Below, one piece after another: positions 1-46,072 of a stretch of DNA of 63,090 bases. The stretch's first letter is position 1. Each line of letters begins with the position of its first letter. Position numbers and translations under genes: made by a program. Source of the DNA: a virus (taxonomy: Duplodnaviria; Caudoviricetes); IMG/VR virus record IMGVR_UViG_3300036398_001095, positions 1-63,090 of that record. One strand, written 5' to 3'. The notes below the pieces were generated by a model. It saw only the letters and a program-made list of their open reading frames with translations. It searched no databases and had not been told where the DNA came from.

Positions 1-166
1 CGCCACAAATTGCTCGAAATATTTCTGATCAACAGGCGTTTCTGTGAAGATTTCTGGCGGTACTTGATAGCCAACACTTGAAGGTTGTGGCGTAAGTGCT
101 TGATCTGTAACAATGTCAGGGGTAATTCCGCCAGCTGGCGGGATTTGATACTTTAGTAGGGTGTCG
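1..166. repeat. Terminal direct repeat / circular overlap, copy 1
   Basis: 1-166 matches 62925-63090 except T127 vs C63051; a reading frame runs through the junction in phase. Confidence 0.95.
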
Positions 167-1227
167 TCAACAGCAGGCTGTGTAACTTGTGGCTCGGCAA
201 CAGCGGCTTGCTGAGCAGGTGCTGGTTGCTCAACAGGCATACCAATACGCTGAATACCACGGCTAGCAGCACCAAGCGCACCACCACCAACAGCACCGGA
301 TAGACCTGCTTCGATATACTGTTTAATACGCTCTGGCGAGAATAGATCGCCACTGCCACGCACAAAGTCTACGGCTGCATTGCCGATGACCTCTTGGGCA
401 GCTTCAGTAAGACCTTCTTTAGGTGCAGTCTTAGCAGCCGCAATCGCAAGATCCTTGGCGGCCTCGGTAAAGCCAGCACGCTTGGCAACTTCTTCGCCAG
501 CCTTAAGCTTGCCAAACATACCAAGCTTACTTAGGAAGGCTGATGGCGCTACTAGGTCTAAGAGCGTCTGCCCAATTGCGGCAGTGGCAGCAACACCAGG
601 GCGCAGTTCACCAGTTTCTTCTGCAATCTTGGCAAAGGTTTCGGGAGCGTTTAGCGCATAGCCTCCAACACCAGCACCTCCCAATCCTGCGCGTTGCATA
701 ACTTGTGTTGCACGAGCTGCGCCAAGAGATTCAGCAGCCGCAGCAGGCAAACCTCTGGCAAGGGCAGCTTCTGTAGCAGCGGTTCCAGCCCTTGCTGCAA
801 TACCTCTAGCACCAGCAGCAGCGGCGCCCCCAGGTAACAACATAGCAAGTCCATAAGGTAAGGCCTCCCCAGCACGCTCATAGGCAAAACCCAGAGCAGA
901 TAGCGGACCTGTCACATCCTCATAAGACTGGTACATCCTTGGAAGACGCTCTGCACGTTCAGCGTATTCCTGCTTTGCTTCTTGTAAAAACTCTTTGGCT
1001 TTGTCATCAAAGCCTAAAAACGCAAGCCCCATGGCTGGGAGCTCTTTGGTAACCGATGTTCCAATGTTCCCAAGGGTACGCGCAATAGGCATACCCGCAC
1101 GTTGAGCGACTGAGAATTCAGGTTTGAACTCTGACTGCAAGCTTTGCAACACCCTTTGATATTGCTCTTGCGTATACCCTTCAGGAAGCTGAACAGGGCC
1201 GCGCCCCGGAACATTGAAGATTGGCAT
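1..1227 (-). CDS. N-terminal 409 codons of a 2074-aa large polyvalent / internal virion protein, continuing at 62924-57927
   Basis: ATG at 1227 abuts the TAA of the upstream gene (MPIFNVPGRGPVQLPEGY...); open to base 1 and in phase with ORF 57927-62930 through the overlap; absent from the ORF track because no stop occurs before base 1. Confidence 0.85.
   Translation of the reverse strand, partial: MPIFNVPGRGPVQLPEGYTQEQYQRVLQSLQSEFKPEFSVAQRAGMPIARTLGNIGTSVTKELPAMGLAFLGFDDKAKEFLQEAKQEYAERAERLPRMYQSYEDVTGPLSALGFAYERAGEALPYGLAMLLPGGAAAAGARGIAARAGTAATEAALARGLPAAAAESLGAARATQVMQRAGLGGAGVGGYALNAPETFAKIAEETGELRPGVAATAAIGQTLLDLVAPSAFLSKLGMFGKLKAGEEVAKRAGFTEAAKDLAIAAAKTAPKEGLTEAAQEVIGNAAVDFVRGSGDLFSPERIKQYIEAGLSGAVGGGALGAASRGIQRIGMPVEQPAPAQQAAVAEPQVTQPAVDDTLLKYQIPPAGGITPDIVTDQALTPQPSSVGYQVPPEIFTETPVDQKYFEQFVA
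122..161. repeat. 40-bp dispersed palindromic element, copy 1 (also at 63046-63085)
   Basis: GTAATTCCGCCAGCTGGCGGGATTTGATACTTTAGTAGGG; encodes LLKYQIPPAGGIT in the giant protein. Confidence 0.9.
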
Positions 1228-2682: not shown

Positions 2683-2685
2683 TGC

Positions 2686-3429
2686 TTAGCCCCCGTACAA
2701 GAGACGTGCTAATCCTAACCCTTGGGTTAGTGGATTACCAGAAGACTGATAAGCAGACTGTGTGGCATAACCTGGTAAGCCAAAGATGATGTTCCTGTAA
2801 CGCTCTGCCTGCTGCGCCGGATAATCCCGCTGCTGCTGGAACTCTTGATACATAGCATCCAAATCGCGCTGACGGCGTGCTTCATCCGTAAGCCCAAGCT
2901 GCTGCAAGGTCTGAGCCTTCTGCATCTGGTTCTGCAAGTCTTGCTGATACAACTGGCCAGCCTTGTCATAGGCCGCAGCCGACCCCTGCATCTGAATATT
3001 AGATAGCTGAGATCCAAGATTACGCATGAGATCTGATTCAACAATCGCCTGACGCGAGCCACCAAATGCACCGCGCTGGCCGGCTTGTGCTTTCAGGTTT
3101 TGTAATCCCTGTGTGTAATCACGCACCGCGGCAGCCTTGGCCACATCCGTAACACCTTGCTGGTACGGATTCATGTAAGCCTGCATGACGCCCATCTTCT
3201 GGCCGCCCACGTCAATCTGACCAAGCAGACCCGGCGAAGAGGCAGCTTGCTGAGCAGCTTCAACACCTTGCTGGTACAAAGGCGCCGTCTCAGCATATCG
3301 CTGCTGAGAATAAGGCGTATAGGGGGTATACGCAATCTGCTGCCCCATGCGGAACACATCAGATATGTAAGGGAGTTGGAACTCCGGGGGCATTTGCGTG
3401 ATTGTTTGCGACGGGCCGCCCATACTCAT
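2686..3429 (-). CDS. Putative DNA transfer (pilot) protein
   Basis: YMNPYQQGV and GAFGGSRQAIVE motifs typical of podovirus ejection proteins. Confidence 0.55.
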   Translation of the reverse strand: MSMGGPSQTITQMPPEFQLPYISDVFRMGQQIAYTPYTPYSQQRYAETAPLYQQGVEAAQQAASSPGLLGQIDVGGQKMGVMQAYMNPYQQGVTDVAKAAAVRDYTQGLQNLKAQAGQRGAFGGSRQAIVESDLMRNLGSQLSNIQMQGSAAAYDKAGQLYQQDLQNQMQKAQTLQQLGLTDEARRQRDLDAMYQEFQQQRDYPAQQAERYRNIIFGLPGYATQSAYQSSGNPLTQGLGLARLLYGG

Positions 3430-4753: not shown

Positions 4754-4778
4754 GGCTTACTCCGCTAAGTAGCCCATT

Positions 4779-8293: not shown

Positions 8294-8301
8294 GCTATAA
8301 T
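8293..8301 (+). promoter_or_regulatory. Extended -10 promoter (TGcTATAAT) for the GIY-YIG gene
   Basis: Perfect extended -10 followed by AAGGAG and GTG at 8328. Confidence 0.5.
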
Positions 8302-8327
8302 TCTCCTACTTTAACAAGGAGAACACC

Positions 8328-9017: not shown

Positions 9018-9019
9018 AT

Positions 9020-10026: not shown

Positions 10027-10028
10027 GA

Positions 10029-10445: not shown

Positions 10446-10447
10446 AA

Positions 10448-24525: not shown

Positions 24526-24903
24526 TTAGCAAGAATAGCCGCCCTTGGCCATCTTAACCATGGTTCCCTTGGTCTTGCCCTTCACGGCAACGCCATCTTT
24601 GGAAGGGGCGGCAGTTTTTACTGCACCCATCTTAGTTTGGCCAACTGACCCACCTTTCTTCATGCCCTTCATCTCGGCCATTTCATGCTTGACCATAGAC
24701 TTGGGTGCGCCCTTAGCTTTCATAAAGGCAACTTCTTTTTTGACCATTGCCTTGGGCTCACCGCCCGCTTTGTAACCTTTCATAGCTCTTTGCTCCGATA
24801 GTCCAATCGCAATTGCTTGCTTGGGGTTAGTAACTTTCTGGCCAGAGGAAGACTTGAGTTTACCTTCCTTGAATTCACGCATAACGCGTTTTACCTTATC
24901 CAT
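24526..24903 (-). CDS. Small basic protein with KxGG motifs
   Basis: VMREFKEGKLKSS...KQAIAIGLSE. Confidence 0.6.
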   Translation of the reverse strand: MDKVKRVMREFKEGKLKSSSGQKVTNPKQAIAIGLSEQRAMKGYKAGGEPKAMVKKEVAFMKAKGAPKSMVKHEMAEMKGMKKGGSVGQTKMGAVKTAAPSKDGVAVKGKTKGTMVKMAKGGYSC

Positions 24904-25478
24904 CAGATAATCCTTCCGCGTGTTTTGCCTTTAGAAGCTATACCGTCGGCACGCTTTGATGCAGAACCTACCTTGCCACCAGCCTTAAAGCCTTCTTTCA
25001 TCCGGCGACGTGCTATGTACATATCTGGCTCCATGCCAAACCTATCCTTGCGTAGATAGCTGACATTGGTAGATCGTGCCGCACGAGCATCAGGGGCAAA
25101 CGATGACATGGATGGTGATTCTGGCTTGACAGGCTTTGCCGCGGGCTTAGCTGCCTCTCCTCTGCGGGTCAACCCTTTTTGAGCATTCATGTAATCACGC
25201 AGGTTATCAAAACCGGCTTTTTTCATCTGCTCTTTGGTGACTACGGGAGCCTTAGTAGCAGTCTTTGTAACCGTCCGACTGAAACCAGCGGAACCAGGCT
25301 CTTCCATTTCTGATACAGAAATGCTTTCCTTAACCTTGGGTCTTTGCTTTTCTTCCTCGGCAGCTTCATTAATGCGCTCTTGGATAGTTCGCGGACCCAT
25401 CTGACCAAAGCCTTGGTACTCAGAAAACGAGTCAACCAACTCGCCTTCATTGAATCGCTTGACTCTACGCTTCTTCAT
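24903..25478 (-). CDS. Basic protein
   Basis: FKAGG...RADGIASKGKTRG C-terminus. Confidence 0.6.
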   Translation of the reverse strand: MKKRRVKRFNEGELVDSFSEYQGFGQMGPRTIQERINEAAEEEKQRPKVKESISVSEMEEPGSAGFSRTVTKTATKAPVVTKEQMKKAGFDNLRDYMNAQKGLTRRGEAAKPAAKPVKPESPSMSSFAPDARAARSTNVSYLRKDRFGMEPDMYIARRRMKEGFKAGGKVGSASKRADGIASKGKTRGRII

Positions 25479-25484: not shown

Positions 25485-25524
25485 CCCTACTTTAGTAGCA
25501 AATTCCGCCAGCTGGCGGAATTAC
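25485..25524. repeat. 40-bp dispersed palindromic element, copy 2 (inverted, intergenic)
   Basis: Reverse complement is GTAATTCCGCCAGCTGGCGGAATTTGCTACTAAAGTAGGG. Confidence 0.85.
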
Positions 25525-25772
25525 TTCATCACGACCATCGTGCCTTTAGTCTTGCCACGCTTGGCGCATCCATCAGCGGCTTTCACGTAACCACCGGCTT
25601 TGAACATCTTGCCAAGGTTAGGGCGCTGATCCATCTTGCGGAGCTTGGCATCCTCTACTTCTTGTTGCATCGCACCACGTTCTTTCTGGGTGGGTACAAG
25701 ATCGTAGTTAGGGTTGTAGTTCGTGTCGCCATGGCGCCCACGGCCTTTACGGGGATCATTTTCCATCATCAT
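25521..25772 (-). CDS. Small basic protein
   Basis: FKAGG...ADGCAKRGKTKG. Confidence 0.6.
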   Translation of the reverse strand: MMMENDPRKGRGRHGDTNYNPNYDLVPTQKERGAMQQEVEDAKLRKMDQRPNLGKMFKAGGYVKAADGCAKRGKTKGTMVVMK

Positions 25773-34173: not shown

Positions 34174-37100
34174 CTAGTAATAAGCGACCTTGCGGCGATA
34201 CATCGGCTCACGGTCTTCATCGTCTGATTGCAGGCTCAAGAAACCGCCCGTCCTAAAGCGCAATAACGCTTGGGTCATCGAGTCTACTAGGTCATCATGC
34301 TCTCCTGAAGGAAAAGCTGCGACTTCCTCAATCAACTCATCCGCAAACTTACGCTCTGGCACCCAGATCCGCCCCGAGGCAAACAAATCCGATACGGCAT
34401 TTAGCCTCACGATCTTGTCGTTGCCTTTGGTTGGGCTGTACTCACTGACCGGAATACCCATCCTTCGGAGTTCAAAGACCAACGGGCTTCCTGCTGCCTT
34501 GGCTTCAACCAGAAATACATCCGGCTCCCACTCGCGGTAGGTTTCATAAGCCTTCTGCTTAAGTTCAGGGAATTCATATCGGTCCTTAAACGCATCCAGC
34601 AAGATGATATTCGTTTCTCCCTCCTCTGTCGTCCACACACCCCATGTAGTACAAGCAGAAAAGTCAGCCCTATTGTGCTTGAGAAACGCCGTGTCCCAAC
34701 TCTGAATCACAAAATCACATGGCGGCGGCCTATCACCCTCCCAAACCTTCCACCACTCTCGCTTAACAATCGCACCTTCCTCAGCCGTCGGCTGTTGCTG
34801 GTACTGAGCATTCCATTTACCTACCGGCAACTCCTCTTTAAGCGCCAGTAACTCCTCTAATTTCCAAAACTCAGGCCAAACCGGTTTACCAGACGGCATA
34901 ATCGCAGGTAATTCAATAACTTCCCACTCATCACCGCCTCTTGTTTGACTTGCTTTAATAACTTGACCCGTTAAATCCCTTAATGACCACCTGGTGTTGT
35001 GACTAACTACACCGTTTGCTATGAAATTTTCTGTGCGATCAATTTCAACGTCAAAAACTTCTTCCTGTCCATCGGAATCAATCGATATTATTGGGTCCAC
35101 TGTGAAATCTGAGATACGATGCAGCTCGTTCAAGTATGCCCGGAGTTTTTCCGTATCCAACTGTGAGGTTGCAGTCGTTACATAAGAGCCCTCGAACCTT
35201 TCCGGTATCGTGGCAGTGGTCAATGCACAATTTCCCATTCCAATGGGCGCGTGTATTTTTTGTTGATGGGGGCTCACCGCATACATCGCATTTGTTATTA
35301 CGCTCTGCAACCATTGCATCGTATTGATCGACAGTAATCCCGTATCTAGATTTAATCCGCGCCGCCCTGCTGGACTCTGCGTCTCTACGCCCCCTGCCTG
35401 AAGCCCAGTATTTTTTGGCGTAGTGGTCGTGGCATACCCCATCGCAGTGAACAGGCTTCTCGCAACCTTCTTCAGAACACGTTTTACCTTTCCATTTTCC
35501 GTGATACCCAAGCTCTCTTCGTGGTGCATCAGGGTTTTTTCGGTGGTAGCTTTCTTTTGATTGGCATGGTCCGCACATGCCAGGTTTTGTTTTTGACCTT
35601 GACGGCCTGCCGCACCCTTCAACGATACAAGTAAATCCCCGACCCTCAGTTGTTCCAATCTGGTCCATTCCAAGACTCCTTCATTCATAACAAGAAACGG
35701 ATGCCTCTTGTTTGCACGGAGTATTTTACCAGATCGTGTTTGTATTTTGTATATGGCATCAACACCACTTGATTGCCAATTATTGACTTTGCTTGTGGTT
35801 AGCAATCCTTTGTCAAAGGTAGCTACAAGATCATTTTTTCTTATTGCGCCTAGAGGCTTTTCCGTTCCGTCTGCCATCAAAACTGGGGTATCCCCAGTCA
35901 TGCACATTACAATAATAATCGCACCGCCAGGTTGTAATCGCTGCCGCGGACCTGACGTATACCATTCATATACTGAATCAAATATATCTGGTTTATGAGC
36001 CGCTAATTTAGCTTCTTGTTCTGAATGCGGATCATCAATAATTAATAAATCAGCACCTTTACCCGTTACAGAACCACCAACACCGATGGAAAAATACTCA
36101 CCACCCTTATTAGTAGCCCATCGCCCAGCCGATTTATTATCTGCTTTTAGTTTTACATCAGTAAATACTTGATTATATTCTTCTGAATCAATTAAGTTTC
36201 TAACTTTACGTCCAAAACCCACCGCCAATTCAGCAGTATGTGAGGTCTGTATTATCTTTTTATTTGGATTCTTACCCAAAAACCATGCAGGTAATAAATA
36301 ACTGGCAAATTCAGACTTGGTGTTGTGAGTGCATATGTAACCAGAGCCTGACAAAAACAGACCATCCTCTCGCGCCACTTTAATACACTGAGTATTCCCT
36401 GTTTGTTCTAGGCGTTTTATGCTTATATATCGGCCAAATGTTTCTTTTACTTGCTTAGTACGATCTTCTTTGCGCGGTAGTATCGCAATATCTTTTGCGT
36501 AAAACGATATTCTGTATGTTGGGCCGTAGCTTTTTTGACCTATCTTTGCTTCAGTAACCGATAGGCTGTTTTTAATACCCAGGCTAGCAAGCAATTCCCG
36601 AACATCGTCAATAATAAATCTGTTGCTTTGTGCAAATGAGCACTGACCGGCTTTGCTAACGCACCCATCAGTGTCCATCAAGCCTTTTAATAAATCTCGA
36701 CGTTGGTCCGGCGATCCTTCAAGATAGTTGCTCGGTATGTGTTTATCGCCTAATACACCAAGCTCACGCAATTTAACCTTCAGGCCTATAATGCCGAACG
36801 TCATTTTTGTCGATTGATCAGTGGTTTTGTACCCACGTCTTTCAATCTCTGCCCTTACAATTTTTGCATCTTCATTTTCCATGGTGATAACAGCTTGAGA
36901 TGAATGCCCGTCTCCAAGCCAAACACCAAAGACATACGGATCTATCAAAAATTCCTTTCGTTCGTATTCAACCGGGCTTACATCAGGAAGTCTTGGCAAA
37001 CGAGGATTTTTTTGTGTTTTCCCAGCTACAAACTCAACATCGCCGGAACGTTTTGTCCGTAATACCTCGCCGTTTTGACGCCTCCATAACTGCTCCGTAG

Positions 37101-37632
37101 TGTAGTCACGATAAACATTGACGCGCCTATTAAGCCTAACAGTCCATAGATGCTCACCGTCAACCGTAAGCGTTGCGCCGTCGTCAGTCTTTACTTCGTA
37201 CAAATCTCGGCCTTCAAATACTTCTGACTTGCCAAGCACCTGTGTCGGTTTCCCGTCTGGGCCAAAGACGAAATCTCCAATTCGGAGATCCAACATGCTT
37301 TTCCAGCCCTTAGTCGTAGGTATCATCATGCTAGTCATTATAGCATGACGTGGTGCCATATTAATAATAAGACGTTTATTATGTCCATTAACAACATTTT
37401 CAAACGCCTTAGCTACTACTTCATGATGTTTACCAGGAATAAACCCCGGCCACATGCGTTTTACAAACCCCATGAAATCATTTTGAGCGTGGGACTTAGC
37501 ATCTTCCCTCTCTTCCTCCTCTATCTCCTGAAGCAGTATCCGCTTCTCATCCTCAGTAAGTAGATGAAGCTTCCCGGCAGCTGCTTTGGCTAACTGCCTA
37601 ATGTCCAATTTTCTTCCTAACCACCCGAACAC
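34174..37632 (-). CDS. terL: Terminase large subunit containing two inteins (about 500 aa after splicing)
   Basis: INMAPRH/TKS Walker A, LIIDDP Walker B, M/TRW motif III, QSWDTA and HDDLVDS nuclease motifs; true start may be TTG at 37608. Confidence 0.92.
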   Translation of the reverse strand: MFGWLGRKLDIRQLAKAAAGKLHLLTEDEKRILLQEIEEEEREDAKSHAQNDFMGFVKRMWPGFIPGKHHEVVAKAFENVVNGHNKRLIINMAPRHAIMTSMMIPTTKGWKSMLDLRIGDFVFGPDGKPTQVLGKSEVFEGRDLYEVKTDDGATLTVDGEHLWTVRLNRRVNVYRDYTTEQLWRRQNGEVLRTKRSGDVEFVAGKTQKNPRLPRLPDVSPVEYERKEFLIDPYVFGVWLGDGHSSQAVITMENEDAKIVRAEIERRGYKTTDQSTKMTFGIIGLKVKLRELGVLGDKHIPSNYLEGSPDQRRDLLKGLMDTDGCVSKAGQCSFAQSNRFIIDDVRELLASLGIKNSLSVTEAKIGQKSYGPTYRISFYAKDIAILPRKEDRTKQVKETFGRYISIKRLEQTGNTQCIKVAREDGLFLSGSGYICTHNTKSEFASYLLPAWFLGKNPNKKIIQTSHTAELAVGFGRKVRNLIDSEEYNQVFTDVKLKADNKSAGRWATNKGGEYFSIGVGGSVTGKGADLLIIDDPHSEQEAKLAAHKPDIFDSVYEWYTSGPRQRLQPGGAIIIVMCMTGDTPVLMADGTEKPLGAIRKNDLVATFDKGLLTTSKVNNWQSSGVDAIYKIQTRSGKILRANKRHPFLVMNEGVLEWTRLEQLRVGDLLVSLKGAAGRQGQKQNLACADHANQKKATTEKTLMHHEESLGITENGKVKRVLKKVARSLFTAMGYATTTTPKNTGLQAGGVETQSPAGRRGLNLDTGLLSINTMQWLQSVITNAMYAVSPHQQKIHAPIGMGNCALTTATIPERFEGSYVTTATSQLDTEKLRAYLNELHRISDFTVDPIISIDSDGQEEVFDVEIDRTENFIANGVVSHNTRWSLRDLTGQVIKASQTRGGDEWEVIELPAIMPSGKPVWPEFWKLEELLALKEELPVGKWNAQYQQQPTAEEGAIVKREWWKVWEGDRPPPCDFVIQSWDTAFLKHNRADFSACTTWGVWTTEEGETNIILLDAFKDRYEFPELKQKAYETYREWEPDVFLVEAKAAGSPLVFELRRMGIPVSEYSPTKGNDKIVRLNAVSDLFASGRIWVPERKFADELIEEVAAFPSGEHDDLVDSMTQALLRFRTGGFLSLQSDDEDREPMYRRKVAYY
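34996..35904 (-). mobile_element. Class 1 intein (303 aa) in TerL motif III
   Basis: CMTGDTPVLMADG, ANKRHPF, VFDVEID..ENFIANGVVSHN/T. Confidence 0.9.
35078..35668 (-). CDS. Endonuclease VII-type HNH endonuclease nested out of frame in intein 2
   Basis: CDVC...IDHCHDTGKVRGLLCNDCN; N-terminal Cys/His repeats; AAGGAG 7 nt before the ATG. Confidence 0.85.
   Translation of the reverse strand: MDQIGTTEGRGFTCIVEGCGRPSRSKTKPGMCGPCQSKESYHRKNPDAPRRELGYHGKWKGKTCSEEGCEKPVHCDGVCHDHYAKKYWASGRGRRDAESSRAARIKSRYGITVDQYDAMVAERNNKCDVCGEPPSTKNTRAHWNGKLCIDHCHDTGKVRGLLCNDCNLTVGYGKTPGILERAASYLRFHSGPNNID
36322..37344 (-). mobile_element. Class 3 intein with a LAGLIDADG endonuclease (341 aa) in the TerL P-loop
   Basis: Starts with Ala; EHLW (block B Trp), TQCIKV (block F Cys), CTHN/T; GVWLGDG and LKGLMDTDG. 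Confidence 0.88.
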
Positions 37633-37816: not shown

Positions 37817-37958
37817 ATCAAACCTATCAAGATAAAACCAATACCCCACATCATCAAAACACCAGCAAAGTAATTCTGCGATGAATGCGATCTAGCCGGC
37901 GGCCCGTTCTCTGCCACCTTGTACCCAGCATACAGAAGCACAAGACCAACCACGATCT

Positions 37959-38165
37959 TCACTTCAACTCCCTAATCAACTCAGCACACACCTTCGCCCC
38001 ACGGTCCTTGGTATTCCTACCCCAGTCCTCACAGACCAAAGCACACCTCTCCCTCTCATGTATCTGTACTAACCTCATAAAGGTCAACAAATCCCCAGTA
38101 GTACCTATCCACCCACCATCCCCAACCTTCATACCAGCACTACTGGCCATCTTCACCAGATTCAT
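37959..38165 (-). CDS. Hypothetical protein
   Basis: ERERCALVCE motif shared with small genes at 48.8-49.3 kb. Confidence 0.5.
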   Translation of the reverse strand: MNLVKMASSAGMKVGDGGWIGTTGDLLTFMRLVQIHERERCALVCEDWGRNTKDRGAKVCAELIRELK

Positions 38166-39063
38166 TCAACCTCCTCTGCACCTCTTCCCTAGCTTCCTCC
38201 CTAGGCTGCCACTCTATCTTCGGCACCTCCCCCATCGTCTCCGCATACCATCTCTTAGGATCCTCCCATATCGGCCTCTCCTTTTTTTTCCTACCCCCCT
38301 TATGGGAACCCACTTCTTCTTCTATGGGGGCCTCTTCCGTAGTAATCCCGCCAGCTGGCGGGATTTGATACTTTAGTAGGGGGTGGGGGTCTTCTTCGTC
38401 CGAGGGTAAATTTTTTGCAGATGGTTTGTGTGGATTATTGGACCTAGCGCCGCCCCCAGCCCCCTGGCCACTTTGCCCCTCCCCCCCTACCGTGGGGTCG
38501 CCCTCGTGCGCCTGCGCGTGCGCGGGTGGGTGCTCGCGCGTGTGCTCGTGCGCGTCCACGTCAATCACACCGCCGAGTCGGGCTAGCTTTTCCCGCAAGC
38601 GTGCCGTTGTATCGCCTGCGCGCTCATGGGTTATGACTGTGCGAGTCTGGAAGGCATCAACGTCCGCCAGCTTGCCGAGTAGCTCGAGCGCACGCAGCCG
38701 ATCGCCTGGCTTTTGAGCCGTCCGGGCCTCGTGCTGGAGAGAGTCCACGACAAAGTTTCGGATGTCTAGGGGGTTTTGCGAATACCTCAATCTGTTTACG
38801 CTCGTTTGCTGATCAATCCCTGCACGCACTTTTGGATTGGCTGCAATCCTGCTAGCCGTGCTGCTAATCGTGCTGCTACTGCCGCTCACGTCATACGCTT
38901 GCAGGTAAGCCTCTCGGTTAGTAGCTCCCGCTGCTACCGCTTGCACGAATTGTTTTTGCTTGGCTGTTAGGTCGACGTGAGGCATAAGCACTCTATCTGC
39001 TGGCACTCCGCGCCCTATAGCTCTCACTGCTGCCGGTGGTAGTTCGCTTGCTTCGCTTGCCAT
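38140..39063 (-). CDS. terS: Terminase small subunit
   Basis: LTAKQKQFV...AYLQAY HTH, RLRALELLGK; upstream of TerL. Confidence 0.7.
   Translation of the reverse strand: MASEASELPPAAVRAIGRGVPADRVLMPHVDLTAKQKQFVQAVAAGATNREAYLQAYDVSGSSSTISSTASRIAANPKVRAGIDQQTSVNRLRYSQNPLDIRNFVVDSLQHEARTAQKPGDRLRALELLGKLADVDAFQTRTVITHERAGDTTARLREKLARLGGVIDVDAHEHTREHPPAHAQAHEGDPTVGGEGQSGQGAGGGARSNNPHKPSAKNLPSDEEDPHPLLKYQIPPAGGITTEEAPIEEEVGSHKGGRKKKERPIWEDPKRWYAETMGEVPKIEWQPREEAREEVQRRLNESGEDGQ
38342..38381. repeat. 40-bp dispersed palindromic element, copy 3 (in terS)
   Basis: GTAATCCCGCCAGCTGGCGGGATTTGATACTTTAGTAGGG; encodes LLKYQIPPAGGIT. Confidence 0.9.
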
Positions 39064-39154
39064 GCCTTCCCCGTGTGAACGTTATGCGAACGCATGATAA
39101 CCGATCAACGGCAGATTACAAACGATGAGTGGTTGATTCTGGCTGCCATACGGT

Positions 39155-39186
39155 TATTGTGTGACAATACAAAACACGCCTACAAT
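39155..39186 (+). promoter_or_regulatory. Probable early promoter with an overlapping palindrome
   Basis: TTGTGT-18-TACAAT; TATTGT-GTG-ACAATA inverted repeat over the -35. Confidence 0.45.
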
Positions 39187-39223
39187 ATGTTGCATGTTCA
39201 ACAAACAACCCGGAGCACATGAC

Positions 39224-39577
39224 ATGAAATTTACTTATGACAAGCAGTTTACTGACGCAATGACAACCGCAACTCAGTGCAGCCCTAAGTGGAGTAACCG
39301 TACAAAGGCCGCCTTCCATGCTTTTAACCCTAACGGCGTTATAGCCCTTCGCAATGCTTCAGATGATCGCATCAGGACGATGGTTGACTCTGGATTTGCA
39401 AAGACCGGGGCCCTGCTTGCCCATGGCTCGCTTAATGATTACCACGTTCGCAAGCTTTACGACTGCGCCATGAAATCCCGTGTTTCATCTTTCGATATCA
39501 ACTATTACGTAGAGCGCATTGAGCATGAGATAGCCGCTGCAAATGCCTTTATTGATTCCATCGCCGCCCGTATCTAA
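39224..39577 (+). CDS. Early hypothetical protein
   Basis: GGAG RBS; first gene of the plus-strand cluster. Confidence 0.55.
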   Translation: MKFTYDKQFTDAMTTATQCSPKWSNRTKAAFHAFNPNGVIALRNASDDRIRTMVDSGFAKTGALLAHGSLNDYHVRKLYDCAMKSRVSSFDINYYVERIEHEIAAANAFIDSIAARI

Positions 39578-39599
39578 TCAACCCTTGGAGTTTTCAACC

Positions 39600-39824
39600 A
39601 TGCGCTTACTGATCGCAATCACCAACCAAGACCGCCGCGCCGCTGTTTACTTCAACCGTGAGCTTGACGAGTACACCGTGCGCTTTTATTCCCATGGCGA
39701 GCACCTAACCAATGCCGACTATTTCACCGACTGCAAATCAGACGCCTATAACACCATGAACCACTACGCCGCCGGCATTGATCGCCACATGGCCGCCTTT
39801 GGTGGTTTTCCTAATTCCCGCTGA
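39600..39824 (+). CDS. Early hypothetical protein
   Basis: GGAG RBS; EYTVRFY...ADYFTD..DA. Confidence 0.6.
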   Translation: MRLLIAITNQDRRAAVYFNRELDEYTVRFYSHGEHLTNADYFTDCKSDAYNTMNHYAAGIDRHMAAFGGFPNSR

Positions 39825-39895
39825 GAGCTTAGCCAATTGCCCCGGGCTCCGGGGCCTTTGGGTGCGCTTTTGCACCATAACCAGAGAGAACCAAT

Positions 39896-40096
39896 ATGAG
39901 AAAACTATTCAACCGCTTAGCCCTCAGGCTTGCACCCTTCACTGTGCGCGTGCTTAGCTCAGACCGCACTTATACCCACAAGGCGCACTCATACGCCGAT
40001 GCGCTCTCATGGGCCCAGCAATATCCCGCCGACTGGGGGCGCGTGGTAATCACCGGCCGCTTTGGCCGCGCCATCGCAGAACGGGGGCAAGCATGA
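39896..40096 (+). CDS. Early hypothetical protein
   Basis: Coupled to the next gene by ATGA. Confidence 0.55.
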   Translation: MRKLFNRLALRLAPFTVRVLSSDRTYTHKAHSYADALSWAQQYPADWGRVVITGRFGRAIAERGQA

Positions 40097-40455
40097 AAAC
40101 CTCAGAGCTAACCGGTGCTGCCCTTGATTGGGCAGTAGCGAAGTGTGGAGGGAGAGGAATTGAGTTCGACGACCCAAGGGATCCGTGGCTTACCCGTGAT
40201 GGGATCGCCGATCAACCCCTGCACAGTTACACCCCATCAACCGACTGGGCACAAGGCGGGCCGATCATTGAGCGAGAGGGTATCTCTGTGGCACGGCGGG
40301 GTGAGCATTCATTTAGCCCGTGGGGTGCGGTGTTGCAAGGGTTTGAGTTTGATGAAGAAGGCCCAACCCCACTAATCGCCGCAATGCGCTGTTATGTCGC
40401 ATCAAAACTTGGCGATGATGTAACCCTTCCCCCTGAACTGGAGCAGACAGTATGA
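40093..40455 (+). CDS. NinX/DUF2591-like protein
   Basis: LTGAALDWAVA...PSTDWAQGGPIIE...PLIAAMRC. Confidence 0.75.
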   Translation: MKTSELTGAALDWAVAKCGGRGIEFDDPRDPWLTRDGIADQPLHSYTPSTDWAQGGPIIEREGISVARRGEHSFSPWGAVLQGFEFDEEGPTPLIAAMRCYVASKLGDDVTLPPELEQTV

Positions 40456-40754
40456 GCAAACCTTACACCGCACGCACATGGCCCGAACGCCTTGCCATCA
40501 TGAAAGACTTGGAAGCTTGCAATTCAATGATGCACCAGGGCCACGTTGGGAACGGCTTTGTTGCTGCCATTGGCCGCGATAGTTTCGCCGTGACCGATCA
40601 GGCCATGCGAGCCCATGGCTTTGAATGCGCCGAGCTTTACAACTTCCCGCTTGGCACTGATAAACCCGCCGAGCACCTACGCCACGACTCCCGCGGCTTT
40701 CCTTCCTGCTGCTGGCTGCTGGCTTGGTTCGAGCCGATCGGGGGGCAAGCATGA
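40452..40754 (+). CDS. Early hypothetical protein
   Basis: ATGA coupling at both ends. Confidence 0.55.
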   Translation: MSKPYTARTWPERLAIMKDLEACNSMMHQGHVGNGFVAAIGRDSFAVTDQAMRAHGFECAELYNFPLGTDKPAEHLRHDSRGFPSCCWLLAWFEPIGGQA

Positions 40755-40945
40755 ACGCCGCACAATGCGCCGCCGTTTATCTTGCCGCCGTCGACTTGGC
40801 GCACGCAATCAAATCGCAAAGGGATTGCGAACCCATGGACGAAAAAGCCTTGTTGTTTACCCTGCAAGATTTGCGCGAAGCCTTCCCAATTATTTCCGAT
40901 CAGATCGCTTACGTAATCGAAACCCTGGACGAGGTGCAGTCATGA
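40751..40945 (+). CDS. Early hypothetical protein
   Basis: ATGA coupling. Confidence 0.55.
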   Translation: MNAAQCAAVYLAAVDLAHAIKSQRDCEPMDEKALLFTLQDLREAFPIISDQIAYVIETLDEVQS

Positions 40946-41286
40946 TGCTACTGAGCAAAACCTACGAAATAATCACGCCCGAATCCGCCGAGGATGGCGT
41001 AGTTGATCAATCGGGCTTTGAATTCGAGCGTGAGCCGTTCAGCTTTAGCGAATTAGTCCAGGCGCTGGAGGATTACTCGCACGTGAGCGATTCAACTTTT
41101 GGCGACCATAATTGGGCCATATCAGAGCCGGACATCAACTGGCGAACTGGCGCCGAGACGGTTTACAGCTTGCACTTCGTTGGGCCCGAATCGAAGCGTA
41201 AGTATTGGCTGAGAGCATTACGTAATCGCTTTCGCCCGAAAGTAGAGCCACGCAACCGCGGCCAGATGGCCCTTGATGGGCTTTAA
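40942..41286 (+). CDS. Early hypothetical protein
   Basis: TYEIITPESAEDG...SGF; GAGG RBS. Confidence 0.6.
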   Translation: MMLLSKTYEIITPESAEDGVVDQSGFEFEREPFSFSELVQALEDYSHVSDSTFGDHNWAISEPDINWRTGAETVYSLHFVGPESKRKYWLRALRNRFRPKVEPRNRGQMALDGL

Positions 41287-41288
41287 TC

Positions 41289-41456
41289 ATGCGCCCAATC
41301 CCTTTGTGGCAATACAACCCCATCACGGGCTACTGGAAACTGGCTCGTATGTGCGACCCGGCCACGGCTCACCAATGGCTGGCAATCTATCAGCGCGACC
41401 ATGGCGCTAACTTCATCGAACTAACTCACATCAAACCAAAGAGAGCACCAAAATGA
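41289..41456 (+). CDS. Small hypothetical protein (55 aa)
   Basis: MRPIPLWQYNPITGYW...; fills the gap. Confidence 0.5.
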   Translation: MRPIPLWQYNPITGYWKLARMCDPATAHQWLAIYQRDHGANFIELTHIKPKRAPK

Positions 41457-41617
41457 ACGATTACATCGCACAAGGATTTAAGAATCGCCGCGACTATCTC
41501 GAAGCACTGGCCGAGGAATACGACCGCGACAAGGTTTTTATGCTGGCCGCCATGCTTGGCCCTTCCGAGGACTTTGACGGGCTAGTGACCGCCCTCGAAG
41601 ATGACATGGATTACTGA
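41453..41617 (+). CDS. Small conserved protein (54 aa)
   Basis: GFKNRRDYL...LGPSEDFDGLV. Confidence 0.6.
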   Translation: MNDYIAQGFKNRRDYLEALAEEYDRDKVFMLAAMLGPSEDFDGLVTALEDDMDY

Positions 41618-41690
41618 GGATGCAACCTCGGGCACTTTGCGAAGTGCCCAGGGGTGCAGCTTCGCACCGATCAACCAAGAGAACCAAACC

Positions 41691-42131
41691 ATGGAACAAC
41701 GCAAGCAGCAAATTATCGACAGCCTTTATCGCTGGATTAAGCAGCGCCCCGGCCTTGAATACGGGAATTACGGCGACATTTCAGCTTACCGATCAGAGCT
41801 TCGCGGCATCACTAAAGACCTACACCACGCCCGCGAAATGCTCGCCTACGTTAGCCGCCGCCCAAGCATTACGGCCGACGATTTGATTGAGTCCACCTTT
41901 CGCGCTTACAGTGCCCGCTTGAGCATACGCGAAGGCATAGAACGCGCTGAGGTTGAATACTGCGCCGGCCAATACTGGCCCACTGAATACCGTGCAGCCG
42001 TTTGTGCTGTCCTGTCCTCAGCGATTTGGTTTAGATTTGCTGAAGATATGACTTCCCCCACAGGCGAAGCCATACGCAAGGCCGCACGCCGTGAGCTTCC
42101 CCGATCAGTGGCGGCCCGGTGGTTTCGATGA
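41691..42131 (+). CDS. Early hypothetical protein
   Basis: QRPGLEYGNYG...YCAGQYWPTEYR. Confidence 0.6.
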   Translation: MEQRKQQIIDSLYRWIKQRPGLEYGNYGDISAYRSELRGITKDLHHAREMLAYVSRRPSITADDLIESTFRAYSARLSIREGIERAEVEYCAGQYWPTEYRAAVCAVLSSAIWFRFAEDMTSPTGEAIRKAARRELPRSVAARWFR

Positions 42132-42421
42132 ACACTCGCCCATTTTTCACCTTCGCACCCGCTGGAGACTTCGAGCGGGAATTTTTCCGACTGGTCGACG
42201 AGTACCGCGCTCGCAAGCCGCGCGGACTTTCGGGAACCATAGGCGAGAAAGGCAGCTTTCAGGTTTTCACGCCGCCGAAAACGACTCACCCGCTACTGTT
42301 CGCCGCGCAGATGGTTAGCCGCAAGGATTACAGGATAGCCGACCCCTACGGGCCCGCTGGTATGGTCGAATGTGAAGGCAACTTGTTGTTTTATGGGCTT
42401 GCGATACACTCGCCCGGATGA
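42128..42421 (+). CDS. Early hypothetical protein
   Basis: ATGA coupling. Confidence 0.5.
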   Translation: MNTRPFFTFAPAGDFEREFFRLVDEYRARKPRGLSGTIGEKGSFQVFTPPKTTHPLLFAAQMVSRKDYRIADPYGPAGMVECEGNLLFYGLAIHSPG

Positions 42422-42618
42422 ATCCTTACATCGAGATGAACGAAGGCATGGCCGAGATTTTAGCGGCCCTGCCCGATCAATTCGAGCACCCAGCCACAGC
42501 CGCCGCCGCACTGGCAGCGGCTTTTGTCGTCCACTGCCGGCAGTGGGGCATACCCGACGAGACCGCGCAGACGCTTATCACCGCCGCTCTAGCTGATTAC
42601 ACACTGACGAAGCATTGA
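42418..42618 (+). CDS. Early hypothetical protein
   Basis: ATGA coupling; convergent with the primase. Confidence 0.5.
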   Translation: MNPYIEMNEGMAEILAALPDQFEHPATAAAALAAAFVVHCRQWGIPDETAQTLITAALADYTLTKH

Positions 42619-43371
42619 CCGCACCGCACCGAGACCCGCTCTCATATGCAGATCGTTTGCATCATCGCCAAGTGTAGGGCTCATGCACCACGGCAACCCG
42701 CTAGCCTTCGCAACCCGCTGACCCGTACCGCTCGCGTCATGATCGGCAACGATGCGCCCGCCCGTAATGCGTGCCACATGCGCCAGATTGCCCGCGCTGA
42801 AGCACACCACCACCCGCACATCAGAAAACCGCAACGCCGCTTGCACGCTAAGCCCGGTCGCGTAGCCTTCGACTAGCCATGGCTCCCGACCCCGACCGAG
42901 CACGAACACCGCGCCTTTCGCACGCGTGCCTGGTATGAAGCGCTTTTCACCACTGACTTGGATTCTCTGGGCGCCCACCACCCGCTGCGTATTTACATCC
43001 CTCATGGGTACGATCAGCTCTTCACCAACGACTAGCCCCTTCGCATCTGGGAATCCCTTGGCTTTCAGATAGGGATGCTGCGCCATGGTTGCCTTGTTGA
43101 TCAGCTCCTGCGCTTGCTTGGCCGCCCGTGCGTGCTTGATACGCTCTTCACTATCGTCAAAGCATTTGATGAACTGGCTGACCTTCTCGCCATACCGGGC
43201 AAACGATTCCATGGTTGCCCAGTTCTTCACCACTCCTGAGTTGCCATCAAAGATGTAAGCACCATTCCTCTTGCGTGGCTTGTCTACCGTGGGTACCCGG
43301 TGCCACCTGCCATCAGGTATGGCATGGTTGATAATCAGACCATGGGCCTGTGCGTGTGCAACAAAACTCAT
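42589..43371 (-). CDS. TOPRIM-domain primase
   Basis: HPYL..KG, LIVPM, VEGYATGLS, ADHD...G, DANDL. Confidence 0.85.
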   Translation of the reverse strand: MSFVAHAQAHGLIINHAIPDGRWHRVPTVDKPRKRNGAYIFDGNSGVVKNWATMESFARYGEKVSQFIKCFDDSEERIKHARAAKQAQELINKATMAQHPYLKAKGFPDAKGLVVGEELIVPMRDVNTQRVVGAQRIQVSGEKRFIPGTRAKGAVFVLGRGREPWLVEGYATGLSVQAALRFSDVRVVVCFSAGNLAHVARITGGRIVADHDASGTGQRVAKASGLPWCMSPTLGDDANDLHMRAGLGAVRSMLRQCVIS

Positions 43372-43583
43372 GTGTTCTTCTCCCGCAGCTTGATTTCTAT
43401 TTCTTTGGCAAACCTAAACTGCATCGGACCAGTGATGATTGCATCTGCTCTATACATGGCTTGCGTCACCTCATCGTCTGTCAGCCCAATCCATTCAGCT
43501 TTACAACAATGACCACACCTTGGACACTCAAAGTCATCAAGATATGACCTTGGCTTCTGGTGCATGTTGTGATCCCCGCTCAT
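43368..43583 (-). CDS. Small protein with a CxxC motif and a WIGLTDDE module
   Basis: CPRCGHCC; C-terminus like the genes at 52.7-53.8 kb. Confidence 0.55.
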   Translation of the reverse strand: MSGDHNMHQKPRSYLDDFECPRCGHCCKAEWIGLTDDEVTQAMYRADAIITGPMQFRFAKEIEIKLREKNT

Positions 43584-43756
43584 ACCTTCCCCCCAAGTAG
43601 TAGCCTCAATGAATCCATGACCCAGTACTTCGGGCCTGTCGTTATCCCCGCGGCGATACGCCATATCGATGACTGCGTTACACCAATTGACTTGGCAATC
43701 TGGTGATGCGTCATACCCCTAGCTTCCAACGCTCTCACTATTTCCTGTGGCGTCAT
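43580..43756 (-). CDS. Cro/XRE-like HTH regulator (58 aa)
   Basis: MTPQEIVRALEARGMTHHQIAKSIGVTQSSIWRIAAG; ATGA coupling at both ends; not in the ORF track. Confidence 0.7.
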   Translation of the reverse strand: MTPQEIVRALEARGMTHHQIAKSIGVTQSSIWRIAAGITTGPKYWVMDSLRLLLGGKV

Positions 43757-45276
43757 ACCAATCTCCTGCCAAACTTACTCTTTGCATACTTGATGACCTG
43801 CTGCTTGATCTTGTTCTGTGTAACCATCCTTGGCTCCACAAAGATCGCCTCGTGAAACTTCCACTTAGGCCAATCCCCCGTCAGGTTCTTGTACTGGGCC
43901 TTGGCAAATCGCTCAGCCGCCGCAAGATCCCCACGCTTCCTGTCCTTGCTGATCTGCACAATCTCCCACCAAACAAGACGCTTATCCGACATCCAATCCG
44001 ATGACTTGGTGCCGCCAAACTCCACCATCTGGCCAGCCGTATTCAGTACATTGCTTGCAGACCTGCGCTCTGCCCCGCACGATGGGCACACCCGGCCGCG
44101 GAACATGTACCCGCACGCCGTGCATTTGATCTCTGCCTTCTCTTTCTCAGTGGGCTCCTTGCGTACCTTGGCGTCTAGCTTTCCATCCTCTAATTCCTGT
44201 ACGCCATGGGCAAATACCTCTACCTGATCCTCCCAGAACCGAGTGAGGTTGCCTGCGTGATCCAGCCACACAGCGAAGTCCTTGCCGGGATGCGGGCGCA
44301 TAACCCTGCCCATCTGTTGAATGTGACCCGATAATGATTTTCTATATGGCCTGGCACATACACCGATTTTAATATCTGTAACATCAAATCCTTTTGCCAG
44401 CGCTTCACAAGATATTAATCCGATAATATCGCTGTCAGGTTTTCTGAACTCATCAATTAATTCCCTGCGTCGTTCGTTATTACCATCTTTATAACTGATC
44501 TGCTGAAAGTTATAACCCCTCTGTGCAAACTCTCTGCATAATTCCTCACCGTGTGCAACGGTTGCGCTAAATACAATGGTTTTAACTGGGCCATTAAAAT
44601 GTTTATTGGTAGCCTCGATCCACTCAGAGACGACATCGCCAACGATCTCAACCCCTTGTTTTTCCATGTCTTTTTCTGCCCACTCGCCATCGAACTTAAC
44701 CGCGGCGCCACGCATATCCATCTCAGACTTCGCTACAAACATTTTAACGGGCACTAACCAACCGTCATTAATTAGTTTATCGGTTGTCGTGCTATTTACT
44801 ACGTTAGTAAATATCTTTGATAATCCTTTTGTAAATGGCGTTGCAGTTAATCCAACAACAATTGCATCAGGATATTTTTCAATCGCATTAATTACTGAAC
44901 GGTGTAATACATGCGCTTCATCTACCACTATAAGCTTTGGAGCGTTATCTATCTTGCGTCTTGCCAATGTCTGTGCGGATATAACCTGCACATATTCATA
45001 TGGACGCCAGCGCCAGTGATCCGCCTGTATGACGCCATGAGGTACGCCATACCTATCCAGTGTTGTACTGGTCTGGTCTACCAGTGACACCCGATCGCAT
45101 ATGAACCAAGCTACGTTCTGCTTGGCCCTTGCTTCGTTCAGTAAGTAGCTGGCACTTACAGTCTTGCCCGCTCCGGTGGGCGCCACCAGGATCTGTGACC
45201 GGTGCCCTTTACGGACACCATCACGTAGCTCATCCAGTGCTTTGATTTGGTAGTCACGCAGACTTTCGATCAGCAT
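43753..45276 (-). CDS. Superfamily 2 DNA helicase with a C-terminal Zn ribbon
   Basis: APTGAGKT, VDEAH, GLTATP, QQMGRVMR, CTAC..CPSC. Confidence 0.9.
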   Translation of the reverse strand: MLIESLRDYQIKALDELRDGVRKGHRSQILVAPTGAGKTVSASYLLNEARAKQNVAWFICDRVSLVDQTSTTLDRYGVPHGVIQADHWRWRPYEYVQVISAQTLARRKIDNAPKLIVVDEAHVLHRSVINAIEKYPDAIVVGLTATPFTKGLSKIFTNVVNSTTTDKLINDGWLVPVKMFVAKSEMDMRGAAVKFDGEWAEKDMEKQGVEIVGDVVSEWIEATNKHFNGPVKTIVFSATVAHGEELCREFAQRGYNFQQISYKDGNNERRRELIDEFRKPDSDIIGLISCEALAKGFDVTDIKIGVCARPYRKSLSGHIQQMGRVMRPHPGKDFAVWLDHAGNLTRFWEDQVEVFAHGVQELEDGKLDAKVRKEPTEKEKAEIKCTACGYMFRGRVCPSCGAERRSASNVLNTAGQMVEFGGTKSSDWMSDKRLVWWEIVQISKDRKRGDLAAAERFAKAQYKNLTGDWPKWKFHEAIFVEPRMVTQNKIKQQVIKYAKSKFGRRLV

Positions 45277-46072
45277 GTTTCTTCCAATACATGACTTGTT
45301 TCTTAAGCTCGGCGCACTCCCGCTGCCACTTGTCCCGGGCCTCGGTAAGGTTGTCGATCGTGGACTGCATCTGCTTCATGGTCTGGTAGTGCTCTGTATC
45401 CCTGAGCGCTGTAAGGATCGTGACTTCCTTGGCCAGCTCTTGGTAGTTATCAAGGATCTCTTGGTACTGCTCATTCAGCTCGTCATAGGCCACCTTCAGG
45501 GCGTCATACTTGTCCTGTGCCACGGCTGACTTCAAGACAGGCTTAACGGGCGCTGGAGGCACGTTCTCTGGCTCTTCCTTATCTACCGCCCTGATCGCCT
45601 CTGAAAGGCTCATAGCCCCTTTCTTGACCGCCTCAATGACCTCCTGGTCGCCTGACTGTGCAACCTTCTTGGCCCGCTCTACCGATCGCTTACCTACTCC
45701 AGCACGCTTAGCCATCTCATCTGAGGTAATTCCGCCAGCTGGCGGAATTTGATACTTTCGTAGGGGGGTACCCACGCCTGCCCATGTGCTGCAAGTGACC
45801 ACGGCCATGGCTTTTTGTGCTGGTGATAGATGGCGGCGATGAAGGTTCAGGTCGATGACATAGGCCACTGGGTCTTTGCCATCGTATTCATGGAAGGATG
45901 GATTGATGTCCAGCTGTAAGCAGGCACGGAACCGGTGCCATCCGTCCAGGATCTTGTTCTCGTATGTGGTGATGGGTTCACGCTGCCCGTGGGCTTTGAT
46001 GGATTCCAATAGGTCTTGGAAGTCCTCATCGGGCATGTCAGGGAATGCTGCTGATAACTGGTGTCTTTCCAT
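45254..46072 (-). CDS. ParB-like protein (ParB/Srx N-domain, HTH, coiled coil)
   Basis: ESIKAHGQREPI...ILDGWHRFRAC, NLHRRHLS, EMAKRAGVGKRSVERAK. Confidence 0.85.
   Translation of the reverse strand: MERHQLSAAFPDMPDEDFQDLLESIKAHGQREPITTYENKILDGWHRFRACLQLDINPSFHEYDGKDPVAYVIDLNLHRRHLSPAQKAMAVVTCSTWAGVGTPLRKYQIPPAGGITSDEMAKRAGVGKRSVERAKKVAQSGDQEVIEAVKKGAMSLSEAIRAVDKEEPENVPPAPVKPVLKSAVAQDKYDALKVAYDELNEQYQEILDNYQELAKEVTILTALRDTEHYQTMKQMQSTIDNLTEARDKWQRECAELKKQVMYWKKHADRKSA
45726..45765. repeat. 40-bp dispersed palindromic element, copy 4 (in the parB-like gene)
   Basis: GTAATTCCGCCAGCTGGCGGAATTTGATACTTTCGTAGGG; encodes LRKYQIPPAGGIT. Confidence 0.9.

Follow-up and report, generated by a model that had tools for sequence, protein, structure and literature searches.

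Why does a phage genome carry one and the same 40-bp sequence in the genes of three unrelated proteins and once more between two of its genes? We examined this question in the window, which here means the whole of IMG/VR virus record IMGVR_UViG_3300036398_001095, a freshwater phage genome of 63,090 bases with a CheckV completeness of 100%. At the heart of the element is a perfect palindrome, and one of its copies lies inside the gene for a ParB-like protein. Having compared this gene and its relatives, we consider it probable, if well short of certain, that the palindromes are cognate duplex DNA sites which the phage's own ParB-like protein recognizes as a dimer.

A 40-bp degenerate pattern matches the plus strand at 122, 38342, 45726 and 63046, each time with no mismatch, and the minus strand at 25485 with three mismatches, while 100 dinucleotide-preserving shuffles of the window gave no match at all. 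This agrees with the first-pass annotation of this DNA, made from the letters alone, which had placed the element at four sites (counting 122 and 63046 as one) and had described the copy at 25485 as inverted with three substitutions. At each of these five places the 14-bp core, CCGCCAGCTGGCGG, matches exactly (0.29 expected). Bases 1-166 and bases 62925-63090 are the same sequence except at one position within the element, which is T at 127 and C at 63051; the copies at 122 and 63046 are therefore a single site, and the genome is circularly assembled and holds four sites.

122..161, plus strand: element copy in the giant polyvalent protein gene, at about residue 358 of 2,074, peptide LLKYQIPPAGGIT.
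25485..25524, minus strand: intergenic element copy, in opposite orientation, with three substitutions.
38342..38381, plus strand: element copy in the TerS-like gene, peptide LLKYQIPPAGGIT, where a variable linker of low complexity precedes a conserved C-terminal tail.
45726..45765, plus strand: element copy in the ParB-like gene, codons 104-116, peptide LRKYQIPPAGGIT.
63046..63085, plus strand: second print of the copy at 122, from the 166-base end overlap, with C at 63051 where the other has T at 127.

The perfect palindrome of the element spans 22 bp and reads AAT(T/C)CCGCCAGCTGGCGG(A/G)ATT. Covariation between paired T...A and C...G positions, as claimed in the first-pass annotation, holds among the other copies but fails for the copy at 122, which reads T...G. 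Translation of the three coding copies returns the peptide that had been reported for the giant protein, TerS and the ParB-like protein, L(L/R)KYQIPPAGGIT. All four copies lie within DNA transcribed from the minus strand, and in minus-strand order the intergenic one consists of a TAA stop, the palindrome, a small inverted repeat, a G-run and an ATG, the TAA being that of 25521-25772 (its stop lies inside GTAAT) and the ATG that of 24903-25478. The element is present at matching gene positions in eight other IMG/VR contigs and is also carried by contigs from independent lake and freshwater runs. It follows that the copies are not assembly artefacts, which is one part of what the first-pass annotation had named as undoing its own account.

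Short-read (Logan) contigs of four runs break at the 40-bp repeat, where copies from the other sites pile up. Both T and C are read at 127 in such contigs, and the pile-up of other copies prevents their assignment to this site. The record itself ends at 63090, 5 bases past the element, and the repeat probably caused the assembly break. In two other freshwater runs, contigs with ends at window positions 139-143 hold further alleles (a CCTTC...GAAGG arm and a CCGTC type), which indicates that more specificity variants circulate in nature.

The evidence that bears most directly on the nature of the element comes from the family of the gene that holds the copy at 45726.

45254..46072, minus strand: ParB/Noc/KorB-type protein of 272 amino acids (aa), the proposed binder (phrog_4715, 2.5e-17; ParB-like PHROGs).

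Megablast of positions 38000-46200 against the phage collection gave no match, and tblastn of the ParB-like protein against phages found only homologues of at most 33% identity. Homologues of the protein were collected (n = 276) and aligned (n = 28), and DNA was compared across 80 related viral loci, a palindrome counting as perfect if its stem had 9 bp or more and its loop no more than 3 nt. Such a palindrome lies inside the ParB-like gene in 37 of the 80 loci, and in 36 of these 37 it falls at the equivalent of residues 103-122. Elsewhere in the loci the background amounts to 29 palindromes in 1,147,141 bp (0.025 per kb), from which about 1.6 would be expected in the ParB-like genes. When two mismatches are allowed, with scores counted by hand from the table for 81 linkers, 49 linkers score at least 9, compared with 6 of the 1,846 random 108-bp windows used as control, and 57 score at least 7, compared with 68 of the random windows. 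The palindromes vary by lineage (for example, AATTCCGCCAGCTGGCGGAATT, TAATTACGCCACGTGGCGTAATTA, AGGGTCCGCACCCGGTGCGGACCCT, GAAAAGGGTGAACCTGGTTCACCCTTTTC and GAAACTCTACTAAATAGTAGAGTTTC) and the peptides they encode are unrelated (PPAGG, PSMDG, PPRGG, SAPGAD, KGEPGSPF and EETLLNSRVS), while the position in the linker is kept in the family down to about 30% identity and the symmetry is upheld through many sequence changes. Perfect symmetry at a fixed position in a gene, despite changing sequence, requires selection on the symmetry itself. Judged by these comparisons, the linker palindrome is an old and selected DNA-level feature of the gene family, of which the copy at 45726 is the local version. 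The first-pass annotation had argued for conservation at the DNA or RNA level rather than that of the peptide, and in this it is borne out, the symmetry being kept in linkers whose encoded peptides differ.

Each ParB-like gene contains one such palindrome, apart from those of L044 and G006, which contain two. In the L044 gene (L044:6918-7748) the linker is present in tandem duplicate, and the same 25-bp palindrome occurs at residue 106 and again at residue 122. That the 13-residue block might be an insertion, as had also been entertained, is not what the alignment displays: the linker block is variable with no clean insertion in either the ParB-like protein or TerS, the linker length is unchanged, and homologues at 60-83% identity retain PPxGG-like peptides.

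Is the palindrome selected as duplex DNA, or as a hairpin of RNA or of single-stranded DNA, which might direct processing, cause pausing or attenuation, or work as a promoter or origin? Folded as single-stranded DNA, the four copies form 9-bp stems with z-scores of -2.2 to -3.9, paired substitutions preserve the stem, and the common minus-strand transcription of the copies, together with the placement of the intergenic one between a stop codon and the next ribosome-binding G-run, would suit such a structure. In the perfect palindromes, however, complementarity extends to the very center, with loops of 0 nt in 10 loci, 1 nt in 20, 2 nt in 3 and 3 nt in 4, and thus includes bases that a hairpin cannot use. 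Symmetry that reaches the center in this way, odd-centered in the 20 loci with a 1-nt and the 4 with a 3-nt center, fits recognition of the duplex by a dimer better than it fits a hairpin. Further, the single mismatches seen (T..G in the copy at 122 and C..A in the L012 TerS copy) favor neither strand, no Rfam family was found in the window, a simple terminator scan does not call the element, and the function of a hairpin would not need one shared, co-changing sequence per genome. We therefore regard the hairpin as the least probable of the alternatives considered here, with little chance of being right.

If the palindromes are sites for a protein made by the same phage, the dispersed copies should be read together with the site inside the ParB-like gene. 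Whole records of relatives were searched, each with its own ParB-internal palindrome, with the following results for the window and four relatives.

G000 (the window), TCCGCCAGCTGGCGGA: giant gene, intergenic, TerS and ParB-like gene (four sites).
G001, TCCGTCCATGGACGGA: intergenic, TerS (one mismatch, one arm a base behind) and ParB-like gene.
G002, AACTCCGCCACGTGGCGGAGTT: TerS, ParB-like gene, Erf and giant gene.
G003, TAATTACGCCACGTGGCGTAATTA: TerS, ParB-like gene, Erf and giant gene.
G004, TAATTACGCCACGTGGCGTAATTA: TerS, ParB-like gene, Erf and intergenic.

The TerS copy lies at the orthologous position and carries the lineage's own palindrome in G001-G005. Positions are orthologous and sequences lineage-specific, and the peptide tracks the DNA (IPPAGGIT, IPSMDGIT, TPPRGGV, ITPRGVI). 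The palindrome differs even between relatives that are 91-97% identical, and an intermediate, L020, which combines a CATG center with CCGCC arms, indicates that the changes occur symmetrically on both arms. On this evidence, the copies evolve in concert. They also have in common at least 18 bp of flank on one side, outside the palindrome; one such flank, GGTACCCCC(C)TACGAAAGT, stands beside both the clade-A ParB copy and the clade-E TerS copy, in a partly different reading frame. These shared one-sided flanks indicate that copies were made from one another at the DNA level. A fixed mRNA-strand reading of the small inverted repeat, TACTAAAGTA in every copy, was also considered and rejected, as the loop is turned the other way in the orthologous intergenic copy of G004.

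Independent, more distant lineages extend the picture. G006 (= L087), whose ParB-like protein is 30% identical, holds 18 sites of TCCGCCACWGTGGCGGA over 57.8 kb, 15 of them exact and 3 with one mismatch; two are in its own ParB-like gene, three reading frames are used, and a reversed-pattern control gave 0 sites. G009 has a second site, inside a 3,316-aa open reading frame (ORF), besides that in the ParB-like gene, and eight near-complete or partial distant records (G007, G008 and G010-G015, four of which are classed as proviruses) hold a single copy, in the ParB-like gene. With several sites in G006 and G009 and one in each of these eight records, a single site is the default and dispersal arose several times. 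The first-pass annotation had asked whether related phages carry their own parB-internal palindrome dispersed in the genome: G001-G004, G006 and G009 do, and the eight records have it as a single copy. The G006 sites, 17-bp palindromes that run from 958 to 57545 at about one per 3.2 kb, two of them inside a 3,123-aa ORF, make this genome the best one in which to ask what dense dispersal is for.

Two genes of the window, besides the ParB-like gene, accommodate the element.

38140..39063, minus strand: TerS-like gene, 307 aa (phrog_51, 5e-11; Pfam Terminase_2 at 22.2 bits, below the 26.1 cut-off).
57927..63089, minus strand: main part of the giant polyvalent protein gene, which continues through 1-1227 over the circular junction.

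In TerS, for which tblastn against phages gave no match, the element fills a variable linker, and the protein has the same length as homologues that lack it. The giant protein, 2,074 aa after the ends are joined, is DarB-like (phrog_10089, 2.9e-101) and contains LPD39 (6.3e-19) and an HExxH motif. An N4-type hairpin promoter was rejected on this ground, the giant protein being a polyvalent DarB-like protein and not an RNA polymerase. The Erf gene has a copy in G002-G004 and none in the window or in L027, and the proteins that bear it have 4-5 extra residues. These Erf copies follow the annealing domain, in a linker (G002:19978, G003:21483 and G004:6350), and the window Erf (55175-55825) is without one, so that the Erf copy represents a presence/absence polymorphism of a site. 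All of the coding copies fall in variable or disordered linkers.

Such placement could also be expected of a selfish or neutral mini-palindrome, of the kind known as Rickettsia palindromic elements (RPEs), that was spread and homogenized by gene conversion or recombination (Erf, exonuclease, RusA) and has neither a trans-acting partner nor a function. Consistent with this are the one-sided flank common to the copies, the variable presence of the Erf copy, and a copy number that ranges from 1 to 18 between lineages. Such an element would, however, have to be reconciled with the fixation of one copy in one gene family to about 30% identity, its perfect symmetry maintained, with the eight records in which the ParB-like copy is the only one, and with positions that are orthologous across clades. 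Nor do the host genes record its arrival: the ParB-like protein and TerS are no longer than homologues without the element, and no target-site duplications are visible in the flanks of the copies. The sole transposase-like gene, moreover, is a TIGR-Tas effector that is limited to the close clade. Of the Rickettsia-type mobile palindrome proposed in the first-pass annotation, the tolerant linkers and the copied flanks stand, while the orthologous sites, the lack of a clean insertion in the ParB-like protein and TerS, and the absence of mobility machinery tied to the element speak against it. We consider a partnerless mini-palindrome unlikely, and the reading as an autonomous mobile element, for which no evidence was found, is largely rejected.

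We next consider the ParB-like protein itself, which on the preferred reading binds these sites as a dimer. Family profiles match Noc (7ng0, 7.5e-6) and ParB (6t1f, 1e-4) over a range that covers their DNA-binding domains, and an AlphaFold2 model with a mean predicted local distance difference test (pLDDT) score of 78.9 matches Spo0J (1vz0, 3.5e-6), KorB (8qa9, 3e-4), Myxococcus xanthus ParB and Noc. The modeled protein consists of an N-terminal ParB domain (residues 1-101), a linker, a helix-turn-helix (HTH) domain (117-164, with helices at 117-124, 128-140, 143-150 and 156-164) and a C-terminal coiled coil (183-271). On the strength of this model, the 272-aa protein has a ParB/Noc/KorB fold, with the HTH placed right after the N-terminal domain. 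The palindrome-encoded residues, 101-113, have pLDDT values below 50 and lie immediately ahead of the HTH helices (117-140), as the first-pass annotation had supposed when it placed the internal copy just before the HTH. Several of the ParB-like homologues carry a precomputed PF02195 assignment. In box III, NLHRRHLSP, residues N76, R79 and R80 are invariant in the family, and in box II G44 and R47 are invariant while the glutamate and the first arginine are not conserved, and neither is the arginine of box I.

If the protein recognizes the palindrome, a change of palindrome should be accompanied by a change of the HTH domain, and comparisons between close relatives are consistent with this. 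Relative to L018, in which the palindrome has changed, 9 of 17 substitutions in the ParB-like protein fall in the HTH domain (117-164), among them K128E and R129K, where the recognition helix begins, and 3 more fall in the palindrome-coded peptide; relative to L017, whose palindrome is unchanged, the HTH domain has 1 of the 7 substitutions. Across the family, the recognition-helix motifs sort with the half-sites, RT.E.AK with CCGC(C)AC and RT.Q.AK with GGGTGAAC. We infer that the ParB-like protein would load at the palindrome as a nucleotide-switched clamp.

Could another factor bind the sites in its place, such as the small terminase at a pac-like site, a different phage regulator or a host protein? 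The pac sites of P22- and SPP1-type phages lie within the small terminase gene, and here a TerS copy is found in every close-clade member in which it could be examined (G000-G005). Yet in the eight fully fetched distant records the sole copy lies in the ParB-like gene and not in a terminase, the position of the palindrome is tied to the ParB-like gene family-wide, and L027 is without a good palindrome in the ParB-like gene and in TerS alike. The rapid change of the palindrome between close relatives also speaks against a conserved host factor. A binder other than the ParB-like protein thus seems to us improbable, to much the same degree as the partnerless mini-palindrome.

Several observations weigh against the ParB-like protein as binder, or against a conventional form of it. 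The covariation of HTH and half-site is confounded by phylogeny, and block recombination of linker and HTH together could explain it. No clear linker palindrome is present at a score of at least 9 in 31 of the 80 loci and at a score of at least 7 in 23 of the 80, and the palindrome arms, at 11-14 bp, are longer than those of typical 16-bp parS sites. The window protein misses Pfam PF02195 at an E value of 0.01 and scores 26.2 bits against TIGR00180, whose cut-off is 58.45. Finally, by sequence and alignment its box II reads GWHRFRA rather than GERRxRA and the box I arginine is not evident, which leaves CTP binding and nucleotide switching uncertain. The first-pass annotation had also called the copies parS-like loading sites. 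In favor of this are the ancestral palindrome in the linker, the match of the copies to each genome's own ParB-internal site and the changes in the HTH. For a ParA-type ATPase, neither PF13614 nor PF01656 finds a match in the complete genome (the controls matched in 14 of 14 genomes), and the ParB-like protein starts at its folded domain and has no N-terminal ParA-interaction extension. Without ParA, this is not a classical partition system. No tyrosine integrase was found in the genome.

How might the sites and the protein have come to be linked as they are? In the mechanism that we propose, the founding copy would be the one inside the ParB-like gene, in the codons of the disordered loop that joins the N-terminal domain to the HTH. 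A site founded within the specificity gene is inherited together with the determinant of that specificity. Further copies may have been seeded by copying or gene conversion into tolerant DNA, which in this phage means an intergenic gap and the codons for disordered linkers in TerS and in the giant protein and, in relatives, also Erf. The shared peptide would then be a by-product of the embedded DNA site, and the dispersed copies would be kept identical to the ParB-internal copy while the specificity drifts. The window encodes an HNH endonuclease (49471-50118), a RusA-like resolvase (50725-51351), a Cas4-like exonuclease (54334-55203) and an Erf-like annealing protein (55175-55825), and this set of recombination genes could drive gene conversion between copies.

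What the sites are for is suggested by the genes that follow the ParB-like gene.

43753..45276, minus strand: SF2 helicase, 507 aa, whose gene begins before the ParB-like gene has ended.
42589..43371, minus strand: Toprim primase, 260 aa, the third gene of the module.

Of the 76 loci with room for it, 72 have a helicase homologue on the same strand no more than 2 kb downstream, and a primase lies downstream of the helicase in 65 of the 68 loci with room. By this gene order, the ParB-like gene heads a conserved module of ParB-like protein, helicase and primase; no DNA polymerase was found among the ORFs scanned. Provided that the protein does bind the palindromes, there is nearly an even prospect that the sites mark where the helicase-primase module starts, as origin or loading site. 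A smaller but still considerable likelihood goes to ParA-independent clamp loading for regulation or DNA organization, by analogy with KorB, Noc and BisD, and other roles would take up the rest. The loading or origin role would thus stand slightly ahead of the regulatory or organizing clamp. Three points tell against an origin. The site is a single palindrome instead of iterons; no AT-rich tract was found within 300 bp on either side in 28 loci, the AT content staying within about 0.085 of the locus mean; and the 18 sites in G006 are too many for origins.

A more specific proposal combines these elements, and we offer it tentatively, thinking it more apt to fail than to hold in full. A ParA-less, nucleotide-switched clamp of the ParB/Noc type might serve a replication module widespread among phages and prophages as its site-recognition factor; its linker-encoded loading site would have been multiplied to 4-18 copies in some lineages, by being written into the disordered linkers of unrelated proteins, and re-synchronized when specificity changed. 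Were this so, the clamp that recognizes the module's sites would constitute a new class of phage replication or genome-organizing initiator. It would also offer a clear natural case of a protein sequence dictated by an embedded DNA site, with specificity and site traveling together through mosaic recombination.

Comparison with known systems shows partial likeness to each. In Bacillus subtilis, a parS site lies inside spo0J. Like ParB-parS pairs, the present system combines a ParB N-terminal domain and HTH with a palindrome in or next to the protein's own gene and further copies inside other genes. In contrast to those pairs, it has no ParA and no ParA-binding extension, the protein ends in a coiled coil instead of the C-terminal domain of ParB and has a degenerate box II, the palindrome arms have 11-14 bp, and the gene is linked to a helicase and a primase. 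The plasmid RK2 has 12 OB sites. KorB is described as loading at palindromic operators and sliding to distant promoters (PMC11790492). KorB with OB (RK2), Noc with NBS, BisD of ICEclc (PMC12409273) and VirB resemble the present case as ParB-fold clamps at dispersed palindromes with no role in segregation. The differences are that no KorA-like or other partner was identified here, that the carrier is a phage and not a plasmid or chromosome, and that the sites are not promoter-proximal, three of the four lying in coding linkers.

In phage N15, the sites IR1-IR4 are scattered through the genome. They are the centromere sites of SopB (PMC7205306) and provide a precedent of four separate inverted-repeat sites for a ParB-family protein in a phage genome. 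Unlike the present phage, in which neither ParA nor integrase was found and which gives no evidence of a plasmid state, N15 has SopA and a linear plasmid state. Lambdoid replication modules have their origin within the initiator gene, ori-lambda in gene O (PMC8508860). The likeness there is a cis site in the middle of the gene for a DNA-binding protein that heads replication genes, here in an interdomain linker and followed by helicase and primase; the differences are the four iterons of the lambdoid origin against a single palindrome, the lack of an adjacent AT-rich tract here, a ParB fold rather than an O-like one, and up to 18 copies in one relative. RPEs have a length of roughly 100-150 bp. 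They share with the present element the property of palindromic DNA read in frame in unrelated proteins at tolerant positions, and differ from it in that ours has 40 bp, occupies orthologous, co-evolving positions, is tied to the gene of one DNA-binding protein and, in two of its three host genes in the window, is not a clean insertion.

Precedents thus exist for ParB-parS pairs, for dispersed sites (N15 IR1-4) and for parS sites that lie within genes. A search of the literature, supplementary files excluded, found no description of the module or of a ParB-internal palindrome in phages. As far as this search goes, what is new is a ParA-less ParB-fold family of phages and prophages with a site in its own interdomain linker, together with the conserved link to helicase and primase, the repeated seeding into unrelated linkers and the concerted change. 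A 2025 survey treats the roles of ParB-fold proteins outside segregation as largely open, though such proteins are common in phages (PMC12704722; its supplement might list this family). The present work provides a candidate protein-site pair for one widespread phage family, with natural specificity variants (AGCT, CATG and ACGT centers; CCGCC, CCGTC and ACGCC arms), each accompanied by minor differences where the recognition helix begins. This series can be used for studying the co-evolution of DNA specificity and sites. The copies also illustrate how a compact genome places regulatory DNA in the codons of disordered linkers, where the peptide can change along with the DNA. The conserved helicase and primase neighbors of the ParB-like gene raise the possibility of a ParB-type switch in starting replication.

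Two other features of the window deserve mention. Beside the ParB-like gene, a 264-aa protein at 47604-48398 (minus strand) matches NCBIfam NF052498, "TIGR-Tas system RNA-guided endonuclease" (4.1e-66, 223 bits, cut-off 100), and its gene is adjoined by an array at 46556-47520 of about 25 units with a 36-nt period. The endonuclease and the adjoining array point to a TIGR-Tas system directly beside the ParB-like gene, and the ORFs called at 46099-46611 and 46970-47365 probably lie within the array. We had considered this gene as an IS110-type transposase that targets the palindrome and rejected it in that role, as it is a TIGR-Tas effector and is absent from distant relatives that retain the palindrome; its homologues occur in the close clade only. 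In the large terminase (34174-37632, minus strand, 1,152 aa), a LAGLIDADG homing endonuclease domain occurs alongside modules of the intein splicing and Hint types, so that the protein probably carries two inteins.

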